A stretch of DNA of 64,000 nt from a virus (Duplodnaviria > Heunggongvirae > Uroviricota > Caudoviricetes), in the IMG/VR virus record IMGVR_UViG_3300045988_010208, one strand, 5' to 3'. How positions within the stretch are numbered: the stretch's first letter is position 1; the number at the start of each line of letters is the position of its first letter. A model generated the notes under the pieces. The model searched no databases, was not told the origin of the DNA, and worked only from the letters and a program-made list of their open reading frames with translations. Shown here in pieces: positions 6,590 to 41,416 of this stretch. The position numbers and the translations under genes are program-made.

Positions 6590-6671
6590 CGGGGCGTATC
6601 TCAGCTGTCTTCTAAACAGCCGTTAACCGAGTAAGTGGAGTATGCGGGTTCGAGTCCTGCCGCCTCGACCA
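6590..6671 (+). tRNA. Atypical tRNA-like gene (anticodon TCT, Arg?), D-arm apparently truncated
   Basis: Acceptor CGGGGCG/CGCCTCG, T-arm GCGGGTTCGAGTCCTGC, CCA and stem-loop GCTGT/ACAGC with loop CTTCTAA are clear, but only ~7 nt lie between acceptor and anticodon stem. Confidence 0.45.
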
Positions 6672-6685
6672 ATTTTGGAGAAATC

Positions 6686-7033
6686 ATGAAAACTTGTATT
6701 AGGTGTAAACTTAGCAAGGATGAAAATGATTTCTACATGAAAGATGGTAGGAGAACTCATTCATACTGTAAAAAGTGTGTTAATGAGCAAACCATAGAAA
6801 GACAAAGAGCACTTAAACTCTCAGCTATTGAGTACAAAGGTGGGGTTTGTCATGATTGTGGTAAAAAGTATCATCCAGCAGTGTATGACTTCCATCATTT
6901 GAATCCTTCAGATAAAGATTTTAACATTGGTCATAGGAAAAGCCTTAAGTTCTCTCAAGAACTAAAAGATGAGCTTGACAAATGTGTTTTGCTATGTTCA
7001 AATTGCCATAGGGTAAGACATGCAAAGTATTAG
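6686..7033 (+). CDS. HNH endonuclease (zinc-binding), embedded in tRNA array
   Basis: ATG at 6686 preceded by GGAG; Cys pairs and HNH signature (DFHHLNP ... CSNCHRVRH). ORF-track start at 6635 lies inside the tRNA and is rejected. Confidence 0.7.
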   Translation: MKTCIRCKLSKDENDFYMKDGRRTHSYCKKCVNEQTIERQRALKLSAIEYKGGVCHDCGKKYHPAVYDFHHLNPSDKDFNIGHRKSLKFSQELKDELDKCVLLCSNCHRVRHAKY

Positions 7034-7170
7034 TTAGCAGATTACTTAGACGACCTAAGCGGGTCTTCCTGTAGGGAGGTGGTCTGTATCTCATGTTTTC
7101 CAGAACATGTAAATAATCTGAGAAGGGGCTTTACAGTGTTGAGATAATACGGTAAGCTTCGAATTATAGT

Positions 7171-7253
7171 ATGGGACGATGTTAAGACTCTAAGGCATGA
7201 GCAACGGCCTCCAAAACCGTTTCAAAGGGGTTCAACTCCTCCGTCCCATGCCA
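7171..7253 (+). tRNA. tRNA-Trp (anticodon CCA), atypical expanded D region
   Basis: Acceptor ATGGGAC/GTCCCAT perfect, T-arm AGGGGTTCAACTCCTCC, anticodon loop CTCCAAA, CCA; D region ~7 nt longer than canonical. Confidence 0.5.
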
Positions 7254-7266
7254 AAGTCTTATTAGG

Positions 7267-7354
7267 GGTAGGTAGCGGCTAATGGTAGCCAAACTGTCTT
7301 GAAAACAGTTGCCACTGTAGAGATACGGTGAGGGTTCGACTCCTTTACTTACCG
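7267..7354 (+). tRNA. tRNA-Ser (anticodon TGA), long variable arm, CCA not encoded
   Basis: Acceptor GGTAGGT/ACTTACC, anticodon stem ACTGT/ACAGT loop CTTGAAA, long variable arm, T-loop GGGTTCGACTCC. Confidence 0.65.
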
Positions 7355-7512
7355 CCTAATAAGATTTTAAAGCCAAGCTTCATTCGGATGTTGCTTTGGT
7401 ATCCCTCGTGTATTGTCGTACACACTGATAAAACACCTAGTAGGTGTCACGGAGAAGAGATAATATCAAGCTCTCCAAAGGTTCTAGTCACCGGATTAAA
7501 CAAGACTATGCA

Positions 7513-7533
7513 AAGACCAATTTAGGTCTTTTT
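7513..7533 (+). terminator. Hairpin with U-tract (AAGACC-AATTTA-GGTCTT-TTT)
   Basis: 6-bp stem, 6-nt loop, followed by T run; inside tRNA array. Confidence 0.4.
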
Positions 7534-7612
7534 AGAGGGCTTCTAAGGTTATTACAGCTTGTTGTGGAACCTTGTTGCTTAGGTTCTTAGAAGTTCTCTA
7601 AAAAGATTTAAT

Positions 7613-7690
7613 GGGAGATTGACGGTAATTGGTAAACCTACCATCCTTAGAAGTTGGTGTTTGAGGGTTCGAATCCCTTGTCTCCTACCA
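7613..7690 (+). tRNA. tRNA with anticodon TAG (Leu?), short variable arm
   Basis: Acceptor GGGAGAT/GTCTCCT, anticodon stem CCATC/GTTGG loop CTTAGAA, D-loop TAATTGGTAAA, T-loop GGGTTCGAATCCC, A73, CCA. Confidence 0.55.
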
Positions 7691-7697
7691 AATTAAT

Positions 7698-7773
7698 GCA
7701 GGTGTAGCAAAATGGTTATGCGGCTGACTCTTAATCAGTAAGACGATGGGTTCAATTCCCTCCACCTGTACCA
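7698..7773 (+). tRNA. tRNA-Lys (anticodon CTT), paralog of the TTT tRNA at 6019
   Basis: Near-identical backbone to 6019..6094 with anticodon loop CTCTTAA; acceptor GCAGGTG/CACCTGT, T-loop GGGTTCAATTCCC, CCA. Confidence 0.6.
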
Positions 7774-7779
7774 AATATT

Positions 7780-7855
7780 GGGGTCATAGTTTATATGGTT
7801 AAAATTCGAGTTTTGCAAACTTGGGAACTGAGTTCAATTCTCAGTGACTCCACCA
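7780..7855 (+). tRNA. tRNA-Ala (anticodon TGC)
   Basis: Acceptor GGGGTCA/TGACTCC with G3-U70 wobble (Ala identity element), anticodon loop TTTGCAA, T-arm CTGAGTTCAATTCTCAG, CCA. Confidence 0.7.
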
Positions 7856-7861
7856 ATTAGT

Positions 7862-7936
7862 GCATCCATAGTTTAAACGGGAAAATTACAGTCTTCCAAA
7901 CTGAGGTTGAGGGTTCGATTCCCTCTGGATGCTCCA
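7862..7936 (+). tRNA. tRNA-Gly (anticodon TCC)
   Basis: Acceptor GCATCCA/TGGATGC, anticodon loop CTTCCAA, T-arm GAGGGTTCGATTCCCTC, CCA. Confidence 0.7.
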
Positions 7937-7942
7937 AACAAT

Positions 7943-8019
7943 GCTGCTTTCGTATAATTGGCTATTACACATCCCTTGTAAGGATGGAAATGCAGGTTCG
8001 AGTCCTGTGAGCAGCACCA
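7943..8019 (+). tRNA. tRNA-Thr (anticodon TGT)
   Basis: Acceptor GCTGCTT/GAGCAGC, anticodon stem CATCC/GGATG loop CTTGTAA, T-arm GCAGGTTCGAGTCCTGT, CCA. Confidence 0.7.
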
Positions 8020-8022
8020 ATT

Positions 8023-8109
8023 CAGAGGTCAAGTGAAAGACCGCTGGTGTCAACTGAAGACCGTAACAAATTCCACGGAGTTGAGTTAGCGGCACAACTT
8101 CAGACCTCT
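8023..8109. repeat. Inverted-repeat-bounded spacer F (AGAGGTC ... GACCTCT) containing GAAGACCGT
   Basis: 7-bp inverted repeat encloses ~73 nt directly after tRNA-Thr; interior shares GAAGACCGT with elements B and D. Confidence 0.4.
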
Positions 8110-8114
8110 TTCAT

Positions 8115-8189
8115 ACTCGCTTAGTTTATATGGTAAAACATCACCCTTACAAGATGAAGAAAAAGGTTCAAGTCCTTTAGTGAGTACCA
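8115..8189 (+). tRNA. tRNA-Val (anticodon TAC)
   Basis: Acceptor ACTCGCT/AGTGAGT, anticodon loop CTTACAA, T-arm AAAGGTTCAAGTCCTTT, CCA. Confidence 0.6.
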
Positions 8190-8190
8190 T

Positions 8191-8268
8191 GTTCCAGTGT
8201 CCCAATTGGCAGAGGATGCAAGCTCAAACCTTGTACTAGTGACGGTTCGAATCCGTCTTGGAACACCA
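8191..8268 (+). tRNA. tRNA with anticodon CAA (Leu?), Leu-like D-arm, short variable arm
   Basis: Acceptor GTTCCAG/TTGGAAC, D-arm TCC-CAATTGGCAGA-GGA, anticodon stem GCAAG/CTTGT loop CTCAAAC, T-arm GACGGTTCGAATCCGTC, A73, CCA. Confidence 0.55.
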
Positions 8269-8273
8269 ATTTT

Positions 8274-8349
8274 GCAGGATTAGTTCAAATGGATAGAGCA
8301 ACAGTCTACGAAGCTGTTAATAGGGGTTCGAATCCCTTATCCTGCACCA
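8274..8349 (+). tRNA. tRNA-Arg (anticodon ACG)
   Basis: Acceptor GCAGGAT/ATCCTGC, anticodon stem ACAGT/GCTGT loop CTACGAA, T-loop GGGGTTCGAATCCC, CCA. Confidence 0.65.
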
Positions 8350-8368
8350 ATTTAAAGAGGCTATTTAG

Positions 8369-8926
8369 ATGAGATATTTGAAGTATGCTTCATGGATTTT
8401 CCTAGCTTTGTTAGACCCATTGGCAGCAACCTTAGCAGTTATCTTAGCACCTTTTGTAGTTCCATTCTATAGTGAGAAGAAAGGGCATCTACCTTTCGGA
8501 TTCAGATGGATGGAGACATATGACAACCCAATTGATGGTGATGAAGGTCACGTTAAACGATGGGCTAAGATTAGAAAGATTGGTAAGCTAGGTGTCTATT
8601 TGCAGAGAGTTGGATGGCTCTGGAGAAACAAAGCTTATAACTTCTCTTACCATGTGTTAGGAAGAGATATAAAAGATGTTACTAAGTGGAAAGGTAATAT
8701 CAACGTAAGCTCTGACCCTGAAGATAATCAGACAGGTTATCTCCTAATGTGGAACAGTAATGCTTGGGGATTATTCGCTTTTATCCCATCAATTAAAGTC
8801 TTTGGTAAACAATTCTACTGGAGAATTTATGTTGGGTGGAAACTAAAAAGTGTTGTCCCAGAAGAAAGAGCATTCTCAAGGGAAAGAGTTATGTTGGCAT
8901 TCTTTATTCATCCACTGAGAAAGTAA
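8369..8926 (+). CDS. Hypothetical membrane protein encoded within tRNA array
   Basis: 185-aa ORF with AGAGG upstream; hydrophobic N-terminus (WIFLALLDPLAATLAVILAPFVVPF). Confidence 0.5.
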   Translation: MRYLKYASWIFLALLDPLAATLAVILAPFVVPFYSEKKGHLPFGFRWMETYDNPIDGDEGHVKRWAKIRKIGKLGVYLQRVGWLWRNKAYNFSYHVLGRDIKDVTKWKGNINVSSDPEDNQTGYLLMWNSNAWGLFAFIPSIKVFGKQFYWRIYVGWKLKSVVPEERAFSRERVMLAFFIHPLRK

Positions 8927-8934
8927 AGATTTAA

Positions 8935-9010
8935 AGGGGATTAGTTTACAAGGTTAAAACCTCGGTCTTTGAAATCGAAGAAGTTGGTTCAATTCCAACA
9001 TCCCCCGCCA
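8935..9010 (+). tRNA. tRNA-Gln (anticodon TTG)
   Basis: Anticodon stem TCGGT/ATCGA loop CTTTGAA, T-arm GTTGGTTCAATTCCAAC, acceptor pairs with ATCCCCC, CCA. Confidence 0.6.
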
Positions 9011-9012
9011 AT

Positions 9013-9091
9013 GCTCCATTACTCCAATTGGCAGAGAGGCCAGACTTAAAATCTGTGTTATGTATCGGTTCGAATCCGATATGGAGTACCA
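9013..9091 (+). tRNA. tRNA with anticodon TAA (Leu?), Leu-like D-arm, short variable arm
   Basis: Acceptor GCTCCAT/ATGGAGT, D-arm CTC-CAATTGGCAGA-GAG, anticodon loop CTTAAAA, T-arm ATCGGTTCGAATCCGAT, A73, CCA. Confidence 0.55.
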
Positions 9092-9096
9092 AATTT

Positions 9097-9172
9097 AGCG
9101 GTATAGCATAACTGGCAATGCAGCAGTCTCTGAAGCTGTCCTATTAAGGTTCAAATCCTTATGCCGCTGCCA
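9097..9172 (+). tRNA. tRNA-Gln (anticodon CTG)
   Basis: Acceptor AGCGGTA/TGCCGCT, anticodon stem GCAGT/GCTGT loop CTCTGAA, T-arm TAAGGTTCAAATCCTTA, CCA. Confidence 0.6.
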
Positions 9173-9203
9173 CTTCTAAGGATTCTTACGAGAGTCCTTA
9201 AAT

Positions 9204-9279
9204 GTGGCCTTATCATAAATGGTAATGACCCATGCTGTGAACATGGTCTATACGGGTTCAACTCCCGTAGGTCACCCCA
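9204..9279 (+). tRNA. tRNA-His (anticodon GTG)
   Basis: Acceptor GTGGCCT/AGGTCAC, anticodon stem CCATG/CATGG loop CTGTGAA, T-arm ACGGGTTCAACTCCCGT, CCA. Confidence 0.7.
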
Positions 9280-9285
9280 ATTTAT

Positions 9286-9361
9286 AGTCCAAGTAGCTTA
9301 TATGGTTAAAGCGCGTGTCTGAAAAACATGAGAAGAGGGTTCAAATCCCACTGGACTACCA
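9286..9361 (+). tRNA. tRNA-Phe (anticodon GAA)
   Basis: Acceptor AGTCCAA/CTGGACT, anticodon stem CGTGT/ACATG loop CTGAAAA, T-loop GGGTTCAAATCCC, CCA. Confidence 0.65.
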
Positions 9362-9377
9362 ATTTCAAAGGTGCTTA

Positions 9378-10112
9378 ATGAAAGAGATGACAGAACAAGG
9401 TAAGGAGATTTTTAATCTCTTAAAAACCGGTAGAGGGTTTTCTAATCCCCTTATTACTGGTGCAGCAGTTCTAGGTGGAACCGTAGCTGCCTCTACATCA
9501 CTTGTAAGCTCTATTAGCTCTGTAACAGACCCTACAATGAAGGAGAAGCTTGTTGCTGCTGGACTCACAACAGTCCTTCTAAACAGCTTTACAACAAGCC
9601 TGACAAGCACTACAGCAACTACTAAGACCCTAACAGACTATGGTCAAAAATCTATTGATGAGTTTTCATCACGTATGCAGGTAGCAAAGGGGTATTCCAA
9701 TGTTATGGGTGCAGCAGGAGAACAAGTTGGTTGTACACCATTTAGTGGTATTATGGGTGTTGCTACAGAGTATGGCCAGCAAGCTATTGACACGATTAAC
9801 AGCACACTAGACAGTGTTAACGGTGTGTTAAGTGACTTACAAGACGCTATTGATAAGGGTCTTGGTACTGTTTCTGATTTAGCTAATCAGGCTGTTAGTA
9901 AGATTAATGAAGGTATCTCAAAGATTACAGCTTATGCAGATGAAGTTGTGCAGATGATTGAAGAAGAAGCTGCCCTTATTGCAGAGTACCTTAAAACGAA
10001 TATCAATGGGTTCTTAGCAGGTATCTTACCAGACTGGTTTGATGATGCTTGCAAAACTGGTGTAATCGACACTATTGCAACACCAGAAATGAAGAACGCA
10101 TTACAGAAATAA
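9378..10112 (+). CDS. Hypothetical Ser/Thr-rich protein encoded within tRNA array
   Basis: ORF-track frame 9315..10112; start placed at first ATG after the upstream tRNA (MKEMTEQ...); Ser/Thr/Ala-rich, coiled-coil-like C-terminus. Confidence 0.5.
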   Translation: MKEMTEQGKEIFNLLKTGRGFSNPLITGAAVLGGTVAASTSLVSSISSVTDPTMKEKLVAAGLTTVLLNSFTTSLTSTTATTKTLTDYGQKSIDEFSSRMQVAKGYSNVMGAAGEQVGCTPFSGIMGVATEYGQQAIDTINSTLDSVNGVLSDLQDAIDKGLGTVSDLANQAVSKINEGISKITAYADEVVQMIEEEAALIAEYLKTNINGFLAGILPDWFDDACKTGVIDTIATPEMKNALQK

Positions 10113-10113
10113 T

Positions 10114-10206
10114 GGAAGATTAACCCTAAAAGGTAAGGGAGCAGTTTGCTAAACTGCCAGTAGCTGAGAAATCGGTGTACCAGTTCAAGTCTGGTATCTT
10201 CCTCCA
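10114..10206 (+). tRNA. tRNA-Ser (anticodon GCT), long variable arm
   Basis: 93 nt; acceptor GGAAGAT/ATCTTCC, anticodon stem GCAGT/ACTGC loop TTGCTAA, long variable arm, T-arm ACCAGTTCAAGTCTGGT, CCA. Confidence 0.7.
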
Positions 10207-10210
10207 ATTT

Positions 10211-10286
10211 GAATCCGTGACAGAAATGGCTATGTGCCTGTCTGCAAAACAGGTTTATAAGGGTTCGAGTCCCTTCGGATTCTCCA
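10211..10286 (+). tRNA. tRNA-Cys (anticodon GCA)
   Basis: Acceptor GAATCCG/CGGATTC, anticodon stem CCTGT/ACAGG loop CTGCAAA, T-arm AAGGGTTCGAGTCCCTT, CCA. Confidence 0.7.
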
Positions 10287-39817: not shown

Positions 39818-40957
39818 TTACTCATAATCCCTAATAACTAGCCCAACAGGAAACTGTAAAGAACCCTTACGAGTCATCTTCTGGAACTGTACTGTTAAAG
39901 GTTTCCCGATAAACTCTTCAGGGTGCTCAGCAAGATACTGTTTCTTCTCATGAGTAGTCTTCCATGAAACATCTACAAAGACGTTAGGGAGAGTCTCTAC
40001 AACGAACTTACCATGACCACGTTTATCGGTCTTGACACCAGTCACTTTAAACTCTTCAGTGTGCATCTTCTTGTGCTTAATCAAGAAGTATGAACGGTGA
40101 CCACACTCGTAGAAAGATTCTTCAGAGATTGAGCGGTACATTGCACCTTCAAACTTAGCTTCAACCCACTTATCATGAGCTTCATCAAACTCTTCCCAAG
40201 AGTTAACACGACGAGACTTAACAGGGACAACTCTACAGCCGTCTCTAAAGTCATTCAATGGTGAAGTCTCAATAATATCTCTACGCTCAGGCCAAGTCTT
40301 AGTGCTGTCACAGATATCATACCAGTAAAACTTGAGTAAATGTCGGTCAGGATTGTCTTCATTTTTAATCATGGAGACAATATCTTCTAAATCCAACCCA
40401 TGAGCATAGATTTCACCATCAAATTCATCAACGTCTTTATGGAGCCTCAACATTGCCATAATGTCAGGTATTAGTTCAGTAGGAATTTTATAAATAGTGT
40501 TCTCACGAGAATATGCTGTAAATACACTGCCAATACTTAAGTGTCTTGAAATTCTACAACGTACACCATCCAGTTTTGGTTGAGCGTCAGCAGGGAACTT
40601 CAGATACTTTGCATGGCTAACCTTTGCAGCATCATGAGCAAGCTGTACACCTACCTTCTCAGTATTCTGTGCAGACTCTTTTGTGTAAGCATAACCTTTA
40701 CGGTCAACTTGCTTTTTATACTTAGCAGCAACTTCAAAGAGAGCTTGCTGTTCAGCGTTACGCTCATTCTTTTTACCGATGTTTTTAGGTTCTGCTGTGT
40801 ACTCTTCAAACATCATCTTGCCATTTTCTTTACCGTAGGTTGTGATAACTTTATCACCTACAGCAACACATGACCAGACGTTAAAGGAGCCATCTTTATT
40901 TTGTTTGTACAGAATTGTCATTTTATTCCTCTGAGTGATACCAAGTATTGCAAGCAT
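39818..40957 (-). CDS. ATP-dependent DNA ligase
   Basis: Nucleotidyltransferase motifs: KLDGVR (motif I lysine), FDGEIY (motif III), EGAMYR (motif IV), LIKHKK (motif V-like). Confidence 0.7.
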   Translation of the reverse strand: MLAILGITQRNKMTILYKQNKDGSFNVWSCVAVGDKVITTYGKENGKMMFEEYTAEPKNIGKKNERNAEQQALFEVAAKYKKQVDRKGYAYTKESAQNTEKVGVQLAHDAAKVSHAKYLKFPADAQPKLDGVRCRISRHLSIGSVFTAYSRENTIYKIPTELIPDIMAMLRLHKDVDEFDGEIYAHGLDLEDIVSMIKNEDNPDRHLLKFYWYDICDSTKTWPERRDIIETSPLNDFRDGCRVVPVKSRRVNSWEEFDEAHDKWVEAKFEGAMYRSISEESFYECGHRSYFLIKHKKMHTEEFKVTGVKTDKRGHGKFVVETLPNVFVDVSWKTTHEKKQYLAEHPEEFIGKPLTVQFQKMTRKGSLQFPVGLVIRDYE

Positions 40958-41114
40958 TACATGCGTAAAGCTCTAAGTCATTTTTATCCGGTTTATGAAA
41001 ACAATTTGCTCCGCAGTGGCAACGGAATGGCTTTCCACCAACTGTTAGGGTGAATGATTGAATCTTCCCATCAGGAGTTCGTACAGCATTTTTGTGCTTG
41101 TCTTCTTTGTTCAT
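40923..41114 (-). CDS. Small zinc-finger protein, hypothetical
   Basis: 63 aa with CHC ... CNAC cysteine/histidine cluster. Confidence 0.4.
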   Translation of the reverse strand: MNKEDKHKNAVRTPDGKIQSFTLTVGGKPFRCHCGANCFHKPDKNDLELYACNACNTWYHSEE

Positions 41115-41416
41115 TTTCTCTTACCACCAATCTCTACGTCGATAACTTGAACATCGCCAGCAACATCAAACTTATGAATGATGCTTTCCACAGTGTAAGT
41201 CCAACCATCAATGCGAACCAACTCGCCTTCTCGTGGGACGATTGGATTACGTTGAGCTACGGTTGTGGTGGAGTGAACAACATCATAACGATAGGTATAG
41301 TTTACTAATACTTCCATCGTGAAAACCTCACTCAATAACCGTGGTATGTGATTGACCATTTTTTCCATAGCTATAAGATGTTGTTGTTTGAGAGTTTGGA
41401 CATCTGACAACAACAA
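41111..41416 (-). CDS. Hypothetical protein (start probably internal)
   Basis: Track ORF overlaps 41328..41588 by ~90 nt; an internal Met would remove the overlap. Confidence 0.35.
   Translation of the reverse strand: MLLSDVQTLKQQHLIAMEKMVNHIPRLLSEVFTMEVLVNYTYRYDVVHSTTTVAQRNPIVPREGELVRIDGWTYTVESIIHKFDVAGDVQVIDVEIGGKRK

Follow-up and report, generated by a model that had tools for sequence, protein, structure and literature searches.

A candidate family of phage arginine tRNAs with a rewired core and no D-arm hairpin

In the transfer RNA (tRNA) cluster of a tailed phage (Caudoviricetes; IMG/VR record IMGVR_UViG_3300045988_010208), an 82-nucleotide (nt) element at positions 6590-6671 of the 64,000-nt stretch analysed here (the window) has an acceptor stem, an anticodon arm, a T arm and a CCA end, with no D-arm hairpin between them. 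We consider it likely that this element is a functional tRNA-Arg gene with anticodon UCU, decoding AGA and probably AGG, in which the core of the molecule has been rewired: a short helix enclosing the anticodon arm, here called helix S, would take the place of the D arm. We read the element as a working tRNA-Arg because of the anticodons found in its relatives, its homology to canonical tRNA-Arg(UCU), the phage's need for AGA decoding and the N73-CCA ends. The wider proposition, that phages of many host phyla share a private alternative tRNA, almost only for arginine, which is an L-shaped isomer of the cloverleaf, charged by arginyl-tRNA synthetase (ArgRS) and used by the ribosome for decoding, seems to us evenly poised.

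A preliminary description of the sequence had pointed out the acceptor helix, the T arm, the CCA, the anticodon loop CTTCTAA and the spacings of about 7 and about 23 nt to either side of the anticodon arm, and all of these are present. It had further held that the element has no room for a D arm and resembles a D-armless tRNA or a tRNA-like element more than a canonical tRNA. We agree, as there is no alternative canonical fold and covariation supports a core that is not a cloverleaf.

Structure and comparative evidence

Relatives of the element were compared in two alignments: A2, a gap-free alignment of 49 distinct 82-nt members, and a second alignment of 67 members from three subtypes that were aligned to a covariance model, a procedure in which the fit to the model favours the structure. 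The parts follow one another in a fixed order: an acceptor strand of a 7-base-pair (bp) helix, UAU, the 5' strand of helix S (3-4 nt), the anticodon arm, a bulge of 3-8 nt, the 3' strand of S, UAAnUGGA plus 4-9 nt, the T arm, the second acceptor strand, N73 and CCA (Table 1). The architecture is that of a three-way junction, whose third arm would be helix S stacked on the anticodon stem.

Table 1. Features of the element and its immediate surroundings, in window coordinates
Feature	Coordinates	Strand	Remarks
Sigma-70 promoter-like site, TTGACA-17-TATAGT	6268..6296	+	11/12 consensus matches; a consensus match only
Acceptor stem, 5' strand CGGGGCG	6590..6596	+	Pairs with 6661-6667 (CGCCTCG); 7 bp; one G-U, G3 (6592)-U70 (6665)
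5' connector TATCTCA	6597..6603	+	7 nt; only stretch between acceptor and anticodon stem
Linker UAU, positions 8-10	6597..6599	+	T8, A9 and T10 invariant in A2
Helix S, 5' strand CUC	6600..6602	+	Pairs with 6629-6631
Anticodon arm GCTGT-CTTCTAA-ACAGC	6604..6620	+	5-bp stem, 7-nt loop, U33, purine 37; anticodon UCU at 6611-6613
3' segment	6621..6643	+	23 nt, between anticodon arm and T arm
Conserved bulge CGUUAACC	6621..6628	+	Between anticodon stem and helix S 3' strand
Helix S, 3' strand GAG	6629..6631	+	Pairs with 6600-6602
D-loop-like strand UAAGUGGAGUAU	6632..6643	+	Leads into T stem; invariant GG at 6638-6639, then A at 6640
T arm GCGGG-TTCGAGT-CCTGC	6644..6660	+	5-bp stem, 7-nt loop; matches Rfam tRNA T arm
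Acceptor 3' strand CGCCTCG, A73 and encoded CCA	6661..6671	+	A73 at 6668; CCA at 6669-6671
Putative free-standing HNH endonuclease gene	6686..7033	+	115 aa; ATG 15 nt after CCA; neighbour, outside the RNA

In A2 the four-helix structure leaves 94.8% of cells paired, against 65% in shuffled alignments (none of 500 reached the observed value) and 32-46% in controls in which the structure was slid along the alignment. All seven acceptor pairs have changed on both sides, in the 49 as well as the 67 members, with 98.5-99.4% of cells paired. The five pairs of the anticodon stem all covary around a loop that is near-invariant across the family, and three to four of the five T-stem pairs covary. A covariance model built from the 49 homologues scores the element at 100.8 bits and the canonical tRNAs of the window at no more than 34; applied more widely, it gives family members at least 43 bits, subtype A (including the window copy) at least 85, and canonical tRNAs at most 37. 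By these sequence comparisons the element is far beyond chance, and the covariation supports four helices: acceptor, anticodon, T and S.

For helix S itself, pair 12-41 in A2 is UA in 37 members, AU in nine and GC in three (12 double changes), while pair 13-40 is CG in 43, GC in three and UA in three (6 double changes); neither has a single unpaired cell. In the 67-member alignment the helix is 99.5% paired and all three pairs have changed on both sides. The compensatory variants comprise the triplets CGC/GCG, CUU/AAG, CAC/GUG (CACA/UGUG), CAG/CUG, CAU/AUG, CGG/CCG, CCC/GGG and ACC/GGU, and the quartets CAGC/GCUG, CAUC/GAUG, CAGU/GCUG, CUCA/UGAG, CGGU/GCCG and CGGU/ACCG. Every time the triplet or quartet 5' of UAAnUGGA deviates from GAG, the 5' connector deviates in a complementary manner. 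The search patterns with which these variants were found left out the 5' strand of S, that is, the 5' connector, and the covariation was thus not imposed by the search. In the window A6603 is left unpaired after the 5' strand, at a place where some relatives form a fourth pair.

Two competing pairings were considered and rejected. If CUC were to pair with the second GAG of the 3' segment, that GAG should be retained; L125 and L156 lose it and keep the first, and the compensatory changes all involve the first. For a hairpin within the 23-nt segment (UUA/UAA or CC/GG) we saw no covariation.

The single strands behave in the opposite manner to the stems, being invariant in A2 where the stems vary freely. 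T8 and A9, invariant as in canonical tRNA, are retained across all subtypes (alignment A4). In the bulge, C32, U34, U35, A36 and A37 are invariant in subtype A, and the other subtypes have shorter forms (YGAAA, AGYC, UCA). The D-loop-like strand has U43, A44, A45, G48, G49, A50, G51, U52, A53 and U54 invariant in A2 and U47 in at least 90% of members; its UAAnYGGA persists in nearly every member of the three subtypes, the few departures comprising UAG, UAU and, in a Kehishuvirus copy, GGU. The last nucleotide 5' of the T stem is almost always a pyrimidine, like Y48. N73 and CCA close the molecule in 50 of 70 distinct family versions, N73 being mostly G or A.

Standard tRNA finders do poorly with this architecture. 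The preliminary description had named ARAGORN and relaxed tRNA models as ways of checking the element. ARAGORN calls nothing at 6590-6671, and the Rfam tRNA model (RF00005) passes its gathering score of 29, at 31.2 bits, only in a search confined to a short stretch, in an alignment that drops the D arm and inserts 20 nt into the variable region; the neighbouring tRNAs of the window reach 40-63 bits on the same model. A 6-kb Rfam search listed only a 23-bit tRNA-Sec match for the element. A canonical cloverleaf reached by some other alignment was accordingly rejected, with ARAGORN silent and Rfam needing both the deletion and the insertion. Several hundred GenBank phage records carry the element; most leave it unannotated, and the labels that do occur on homologues are tRNA, tRNA-OTHER and tRNA-TERM. 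The last of these, on the copy in phage 7t3, would imply a suppressor tRNA. We rejected this, as a 7-nt loop with U33 and A37 places UCU at 34-36, and the label is probably CTA read out of register. With the gene unannotated in most records, arginine is systematically under-covered in phage tRNA repertoires and in analyses of codon compensation.

Arginine identity, origin and need

Among the 67 aligned members the anticodon is UCU in 53, CCU in eight, ACG in five and UAU in one, which makes 66 of 67 arginine anticodons, and a scan of subtype A that was blind to the anticodon found UCU only. The identity set of E. coli ArgRS consists of C35, U36 or G36, A20, and A73 or G73. C35 is present in all 66 members with an arginine anticodon, and position 36 is U or G. 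The discriminator in the window is A73, and most of the 50 versions that end in CCA have G or A there. The A that follows GG (6640 in the window) is kept in almost all members, although several of the search patterns required GGA.

Individual copies show the range of anticodons. L238 (3580-3659) carries UAU (Ile, for AUA), L061 (2689-2766) carries ACG (Arg), and L234 (10186-10349) is a tandem pair with CCU and UCU. A copy in the crAss-like Kehishuvirus 'tikkala' (L262, 395-474) has a GAU (Ile) anticodon and GGU for GGA, so that U stands in place of the A after GG; it lacks CCA, and its acceptor stem contains mismatches.

The element is homologous to, and evidently derived from, canonical tRNA-Arg(UCU), on the following sequence comparisons. 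Moogle (Mooglevirus) and SunLIRen (Kolesnikvirus), which belong to sister genera, carry a canonical tRNA-Arg(TCT) of 77-79 nt at the equivalent point of their clusters; the upstream flank in Moogle is also the same as in the window, and the anticodon arm in SunLIRen is identical to that of the element. Four rewired copies (L012, L025, L044, L049) keep the acceptor GCACCC/GGGUGU and the G73 of the canonical phage tRNA-Arg.

AGA is the commonest arginine codon in the window, at 41% of Arg codons and 17.2 per 1000 codons (41 window ORFs, i.e. open reading frames). The only Arg tRNA among the ARAGORN calls in the window has anticodon ACG, and ARAGORN found no other tRNA-Arg(UCU) there. The Felix O1 genome paper remarked that AGA was over-represented and that a matching tRNA was expected and not found by tRNAscan-SE (PMC3185647); the rewired gene would supply the AGA tRNA that was reported as "missing" from Felix O1 in 2010. 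Most phage tRNA clusters with a rewired gene likewise have no canonical Arg(TCT).

Proposed structure and function

In the structure that we propose, the D-arm hairpin would be replaced by the pairing of CUC with GAG, giving a helix S that encloses the anticodon arm. The 3 bp of S, A14 and the 5 bp of the anticodon stem would together make a limb of about nine layers, close to the canonical ten of D stem, nucleotide 26 and anticodon stem. The strand UAAGUGGAGUAU that follows S would be an unclosed D loop whose GG docks on the T loop in the manner of G18 and G19; the A that comes next would take the place of A20, the D-loop identity nucleotide for E. coli ArgRS, and U8-A44 and A45-U54 would reproduce the tertiary pairs 8-14 and 15-48. 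The strand after S may then be read as "D-stem strand + A14 R15. Y G18 G19 A20", for which GUUC-AAACGGAUA in the canonical tRNA-Arg of Moogle offers a comparison; from the sequences we infer a resemblance of the D-loop-like strand to the canonical D loop (AAACGGA in the Moogle tRNA). In effect the D stem would survive with its chain order changed, the anticodon arm emerging at the former place of the D loop, and the D-loop-like strand would stand in for the variable loop, with a tRNA-like L shape preserved.

The gene would be transcribed within the tRNA cluster, where the promoter-like site at 6268..6296 could drive a transcript that includes it, and RNase P would cut the 5' end at 6589/6590. 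Host ArgRS would charge the RNA by way of C35, U36 and the A after GG, and EF-Tu would carry it by its normal 12-bp acceptor/T branch. The product would serve the very frequent AGA codons of the phage, for which host tRNA is scarce. The altered core may have been kept because it escapes some agent that attacks canonical tRNA-Arg or its gene, for example a host defence directed at tRNAs, or the recurrent homing endonuclease described below.

Distribution of the family

Distant BLAST searches with the element returned copies 84-88% identical in unrelated phage groups: Asteriusvirus jumbo phages (PBECO4, 7t3), rV5-like Vequintavirinae, and the Klebsiella phages Sugarland/Roth49 and KB57. Progressively looser pattern scans of IMG/VR found 53, 66, 81 and 112 loci, the looser counts including some chance matches; in all, more than 100 contigs of viral metagenomes carry homologues. 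Queries with other subtypes reached cultured phages of Streptomyces, Microbacterium, Pseudomonas, Agrobacterium and Limnohabitans and a crAss-like Bacteroides phage, and almost none of these copies were annotated. Among 185,579 bacterial and archaeal species, with one genome each, the subtype-A pattern found four true members, all of them on contigs of metagenome-assembled genomes, and a search of 5,426 complete E. coli genomes found no match to the element. The family thus appears to be restricted to phages, as far as a scan of cellular genomes for subtype A can tell.

The rewired tRNA-Arg of P. aeruginosa phage PAK_P2 (L261, 396-473, 78 nt) is 100% identical in phages of P. putida (Amme-3, KoPa-4 and others) and 98.7% identical in the P. 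syringae phage phiPsa397, which suggests recent horizontal spread of copies of this type, possibly along with the adjoining HNH gene.

Weighing the evidence

Several points weigh against the element being a decoding tRNA-Arg of the proposed structure. Folded alone by minimum free energy, the element is no more stable than shuffled sequences (z = -0.14), and it pairs CUC with the second GAG (6639-6641) instead of the first; the argument therefore depends on comparison between relatives. RNAalifold finds the helices of the acceptor, anticodon and T arms and misses the 3-bp helix S, for which the support consists of covariation counts over only 3 bp. The three-dimensional equivalences (U8-A44, A45-U54, GG with the T loop, and A50 as A20) are drawn from resemblance between sequences, and the one with pair 15-48 has a mixed record, as L156 (UAG...C) fits covariation and L243 (UAA...C) does not. 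Transcription, processing, charging and decoding of the rewired tRNA are predicted from the DNA only. The copies in the window and in other enteric phages also carry a combination of G3·U70, G2-C71, G4-C69 and A73 that is the identity set of the alanyl enzyme; the amino acid with which these copies are charged is not certain, and some charging with alanine is conceivable.

The members without CCA belong here as well. There are eight of them (L019, L011, L160, L033, L182, L022, L013 and L035), in which pairing between the flanks adds 12-17 bp to the acceptor stem and gives a helix of 19-24 bp. The canonical tRNAs in the three of these eight phages that were checked have CCA and unpaired flanks. 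One of the eight, L033, adjoins a canonical tRNA-Arg(UCU), which fits a non-decoding role for at least the CCA-less subset. In all eight, C is the first trailer base after N73. The CCA-less members may be processed differently, or may not be decoders.

We therefore considered whether the element is a non-decoding tRNA mimic, a decoy or sponge that would offer a tRNA-Arg anticodon arm and an elbow like that of a tRNA to a host factor (for example an anticodon nuclease directed at tRNA-Arg, or another defence that targets tRNAs) or a phage factor, and so titrate it. Besides the eight CCA-less members and the canonical neighbour of L033, it would account for an anticodon loop of the host type, CUUCUAA, and for conserved single strands, which suggest recognition by a protein; phage tRNAs are documented to act against tRNA-cleaving defences (PMC10264068, PMC11555353). 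A decoy, however, needs no covarying 7-bp acceptor and no N73-CCA, the latter found in 50/70 versions. In Felixounavirus the element replaces the canonical tRNA-Arg(UCU) of the sister genera and is not additional to it, in a phage that is rich in AGA and has no other UCU tRNA. The occurrence of three Arg anticodons, all with C35, fits synthetase identity better than mimicry of one target, and we found no phage defence specific to tRNA-Arg. On balance we think a mimic unlikely.

The second alternative concerns the enteric-phage copies, which might be charged by alanyl-tRNA synthetase (AlaRS) through G3·U70 and act either as a missense tRNA placing alanine at AGA or as the alanine partner of a transfer-messenger RNA (tmRNA)-like tag encoded upstream (6434-6469). 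The AlaRS identity set is G3·U70 with G2-C71, G4-C69 and A73, and the acceptor end in the window has each of these. Phages of Enterobacteria retain G3·U70 in four distinct acceptor contexts (CGG/UCG, CCG/UGG, GAG/UUC and GCG/UGC), and the tag-like ORF lies on the same predicted transcript. Against this, only 8/49 and 4/67 members of the two alignments have G3·U70, the copies in rV5-like E. coli phages lack it, and G-U pairs occur in the family at various positions from 1 to 5. In Moogle the same tag lies beside a canonical tRNA-Arg without G3·U70, and no tRNA-like gene adjoins the homologue of the tag region in an E. coli prophage. Alanine at AGA, the commonest Arg codon, would moreover be highly deleterious. 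We regard this explanation as quite improbable, and prefer the reading of the element as a rewired, arginine-accepting tRNA.

The phage, its tRNA cluster and the HNH gene

The window phage is a Felixounavirus, that is, a Felix O1-like myovirus; the segment 6200-7300 of the window matches 282 phage records, the best at 98% identity and Salmonella phage FelixO1 at 93.6%. Its tRNA cluster (4864-10286) has 25 tRNAs called by ARAGORN, all on the + strand. Directly upstream of the cluster, an ORF of 471 aa (3283-4698) contains a MIDAS-like motif, DVSSSMS, along with matches to DUF2828 and DUF7788; its orthologue in Moogle is annotated as an RNA-binding protein. The product of this ORF could be related to the odd RNAs of the tRNA cluster. 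A particular form of this idea, in which the element is a Y-RNA/YrlA-like module bound by the DUF2828/DUF7788 protein, was rejected: there is no Rfam match, the protein matches these DUF families alone in Pfam and no Ro/TROVE domain, and most members have CCA ends.

The preliminary description had placed the start of an HNH ORF 15 nt after the CCA, correctly (ATG at 6686), and had suggested that the element may be a tRNA damaged at an endonuclease insertion site. The ORF matches Pfam HNH at 17.5 bits (E 0.0047), below the cut-off of 21.4, and its homologues are annotated as HNH endonucleases. It is present in some Felixounaviruses and absent from others, at a fixed site with the same flanks and with the tRNA unchanged. 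In those that lack it (L015, L021, L031 and others) an identical element is followed by ACCAATTTAGTTAGCAG, which in the window is the sequence after the HNH stop codon (7031-7033). As the HNH-less relatives carry both the same element and the same following sequence, the HNH gene has inserted 3' to a gene that is itself intact.

The suggestion of damage does not survive this comparison, which reveals an intact element where a truncated remnant had been one of the possibilities raised, nor the finding of the same architecture with compensatory changes in many unrelated phages with no HNH gene nearby. A degenerate, non-functional tRNA-Arg that lost its D arm through HNH insertion or local rearrangement could explain why ARAGORN is silent, why many GenBank records are blank or read tRNA-OTHER or tRNA-TERM, and why an HNH gene starts so close downstream, but we give it next to no credence, given that the insertion point lies outside the RNA, after the CCA, that the element is conserved across unrelated phages and host phyla with four compensating helices and invariant single strands, and that independent scans argue against an artefact of alignment.

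The association with HNH genes is nevertheless real and recurrent. In PAK_P2 a 56%-identical HNH gene (E 1e-43) starts 15 nt after a rewired tRNA of another subtype, and in L233 a 47%-identical one abuts the rewired tRNA. The HNH ORFs that follow the element in Roth49 and 7t3 are unrelated to that of the window. The notion that HNH gene and tRNA travel as one cassette everywhere is thus only partly true, PAK_P2 and L233 having the same HNH family and Roth49 and 7t3 not. A conserved tRNA gene may serve as a landing site for homing endonucleases; a link between the rewiring and resistance to an endonuclease would be speculation. The restriction to phages, together with the repeated linkage to one HNH family, raises the question of whether the rewiring shields the tRNA, or its gene, from a nuclease.

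Other unusual RNAs nearby and in related phages

Just upstream of the element, 6399-6588 resembles the mRNA-like segment of a tmRNA, with the tag-like ORF at 6434-6469; similar segments are found at 2830-2965 in Moogle (L158) and at 2501-2620 in L263. The sequence GCAAACGACAATGTTTTTCTGGCAGTAGCTTGATAG encodes ANDNVFLAVA followed by two stop codons, which may be compared with the E. coli ssrA tag ANDENYALAA. The Rfam tmRNA model gives only a partial match of 16 bits to the tag segment, and ARAGORN reports this tag in Moogle. Between Felix and Moogle the tag shows only synonymous and stop-to-stop changes, and a hairpin after it (at about 6483-6505) has three compensatory pairs. A homologous stretch of about 125 nt (81% identity; tag ANEEMYLAVA and a stop codon) occurs in 338/5,426 E. 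coli genomes, unannotated, between the Q antiterminator and holin genes of lambdoid prophages, and also on plasmids; no tRNA-like domain is evident beside this E. coli homologue. We think it unlikely that the element is the tRNA-like domain of a tmRNA with this upstream tag, in view of a self-contained element, a Moogle tag beside a canonical tRNA-Arg and a prophage homologue with no tRNA.

A second odd tRNA-like gene lies at 7171-7253, with a Trp anticodon in the arm AACGG-C-CUCCAAA-A-CCGUU, a perfect 8-bp acceptor (AUGGGACG/CGUCCCAU), a 4-bp T stem and a GCCA end; a promoter-like site is found nearby at 7139-7167. ARAGORN makes no call for this gene in the window and calls a tRNA-Trp (71 nt) in VpaE1_ev78, and Rfam gives 23 bits, with the tRNA-Sec model only. 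It is possibly an 8/4-type tRNA. In Moogle (3107-3226), an unannotated tRNA-like element of about 120 nt, absent from the window, separates the canonical tRNA-Arg from the Trp-like gene; its acceptor is GGUCAAG/CUUGACU and its T arm GUAGG-UUCAACU-CCUAC, it ends in G-CCA, and it contains CGAGUAAGU.

Clusters with a rewired tRNA also hold tRNAs that have normal D arms and long variable arms, for amino acids usually served by tRNAs with a short variable arm: Ile-UAU (91-96 nt), and Trp, Gln, Asn, Lys, Cys and Met (83-89 nt), with examples at L041 6269-6364, L044 1612-1702 and L167 4163-4256. We considered the rewired architecture for these long tRNAs (Ile-UAU, Trp, Gln, Asn and others) and rejected it on account of the normal D arms and long variable arms.

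The RNA sRNA2 of phage PAK_P3 is abundantly expressed (PMC4933390). Its gene (L264, 41345-41478) contains a T-arm-like AGGAGGUUCGAUUCCUC, and the neighbouring intergenic region (40820-41160) has more T-arm-like motifs. RNA-seq of sRNA2 was set aside as evidence for expression of the family, as sRNA2 is tRNA-like and does not match the model of the rewired tRNA-Arg.

Comparison with known systems

To our knowledge, the cloverleaf with a D arm is treated as universal for translation of the cytosolic type, the exceptions being essentially those of animal mitochondria, where the partner proteins have co-evolved. If our reading is right, the rewired tRNAs would be the first family of D-armless elongator tRNAs outside organelles, and bacterial ArgRS, RNase P, EF-Tu and ribosomes would tolerate a core that is wired differently. 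The family would then offer a natural scaffold for testing which tertiary contacts matter, and possibly one for engineering orthogonal tRNAs. We found no description of the family in the literature on D-armless or non-canonical phage tRNAs, in a search confined to openly accessible journals.

The closest relative is canonical tRNA-Arg(UCU) itself, as in Moogle, SunLIRen and E. coli argU, which shares the loop CUUCUAA, the 5-bp anticodon stem, the T arm, the 7-bp acceptor, G73 or A73 and CCA. With Moogle and SunLIRen the element also shares its place in the cluster (and in Moogle the flanks), and some rewired members share the GCACCC acceptor. It differs in having no D-arm hairpin, in the strands of helix S that flank the anticodon arm, and in its length, 82 nt against 77 nt.

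Other RNAs from phage tRNA regions, namely the T4 species 1 and 2 (band C/D) RNAs and PAK_P3 sRNA2 (PMC4933390), have T-arm-like parts and no known function; they lack a defined anticodon arm, whereas the rewired family has a perfect one and mostly an encoded CCA. The tRNA-like domain of tmRNA has G3·U70 and an ACCA end in common with the window element (G3·U70 being found in 8/49 of the family), but it has no anticodon arm and its acceptor strands are split by the mRNA-like domain and pseudoknots, while the element is self-contained, at 82 nt with a full anticodon arm. The permuted and split tRNA genes of algae and archaea (PMC3218864) share a non-canonical order of segments along the gene; they mature to a normal cloverleaf, whereas in our case the mature RNA itself would be rewired, and no signals for circularisation or splicing are evident.

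Class II tRNAs, tRNA-Sec and allo-tRNAs (PMC5389517) resemble the element in having extra nucleotides between the anticodon and T arms. The tRNA-Sec and allo-tRNA branch has 8/5, 9/4, 8/4 or 9/3 bp and a long variable-arm hairpin, with the D arm kept, against 7/5 in the element, whose 23-nt segment has no covarying hairpin and, unlike the class II, Sec or allo variable arm, would pair with the 5' connector. Allo-tRNAs and 8/4 tRNAs are also found in phage tRNA clusters, and the allo-tRNA paper covers other phage oddities and not the rewired tRNA-Arg (PMC5389517).

By analogy, the nearest structural precedent would be the D-armless mitochondrial tRNA-Ser, that is, metazoan tRNA-Ser(AGY) and nematode tRNA-Ser (PMC7609411, PMC4013460). 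These share the absence of the D arm and a short connector, and pairing between their connectors probably lengthens the anticodon limb, a likeness to helix S. A 2020 review of non-canonical tRNAs places D-armless tRNAs in mitochondria only and gives no phage case (PMC7609411). The mitochondrial tRNAs are, however, miniaturised (about 55-65 nt), AT-rich and flexible, with weak or absent contacts between D loop and T loop and with adapted organellar factors, whereas the element has 82 nt, a canonical T loop and a GG strand, is encoded in a phage genome, and would depend on the ordinary ArgRS, EF-Tu and ribosomes of bacteria. On these sequence grounds we would class it as a new structural variant among tRNAs, one that is specific to the arginine tRNAs of phages.

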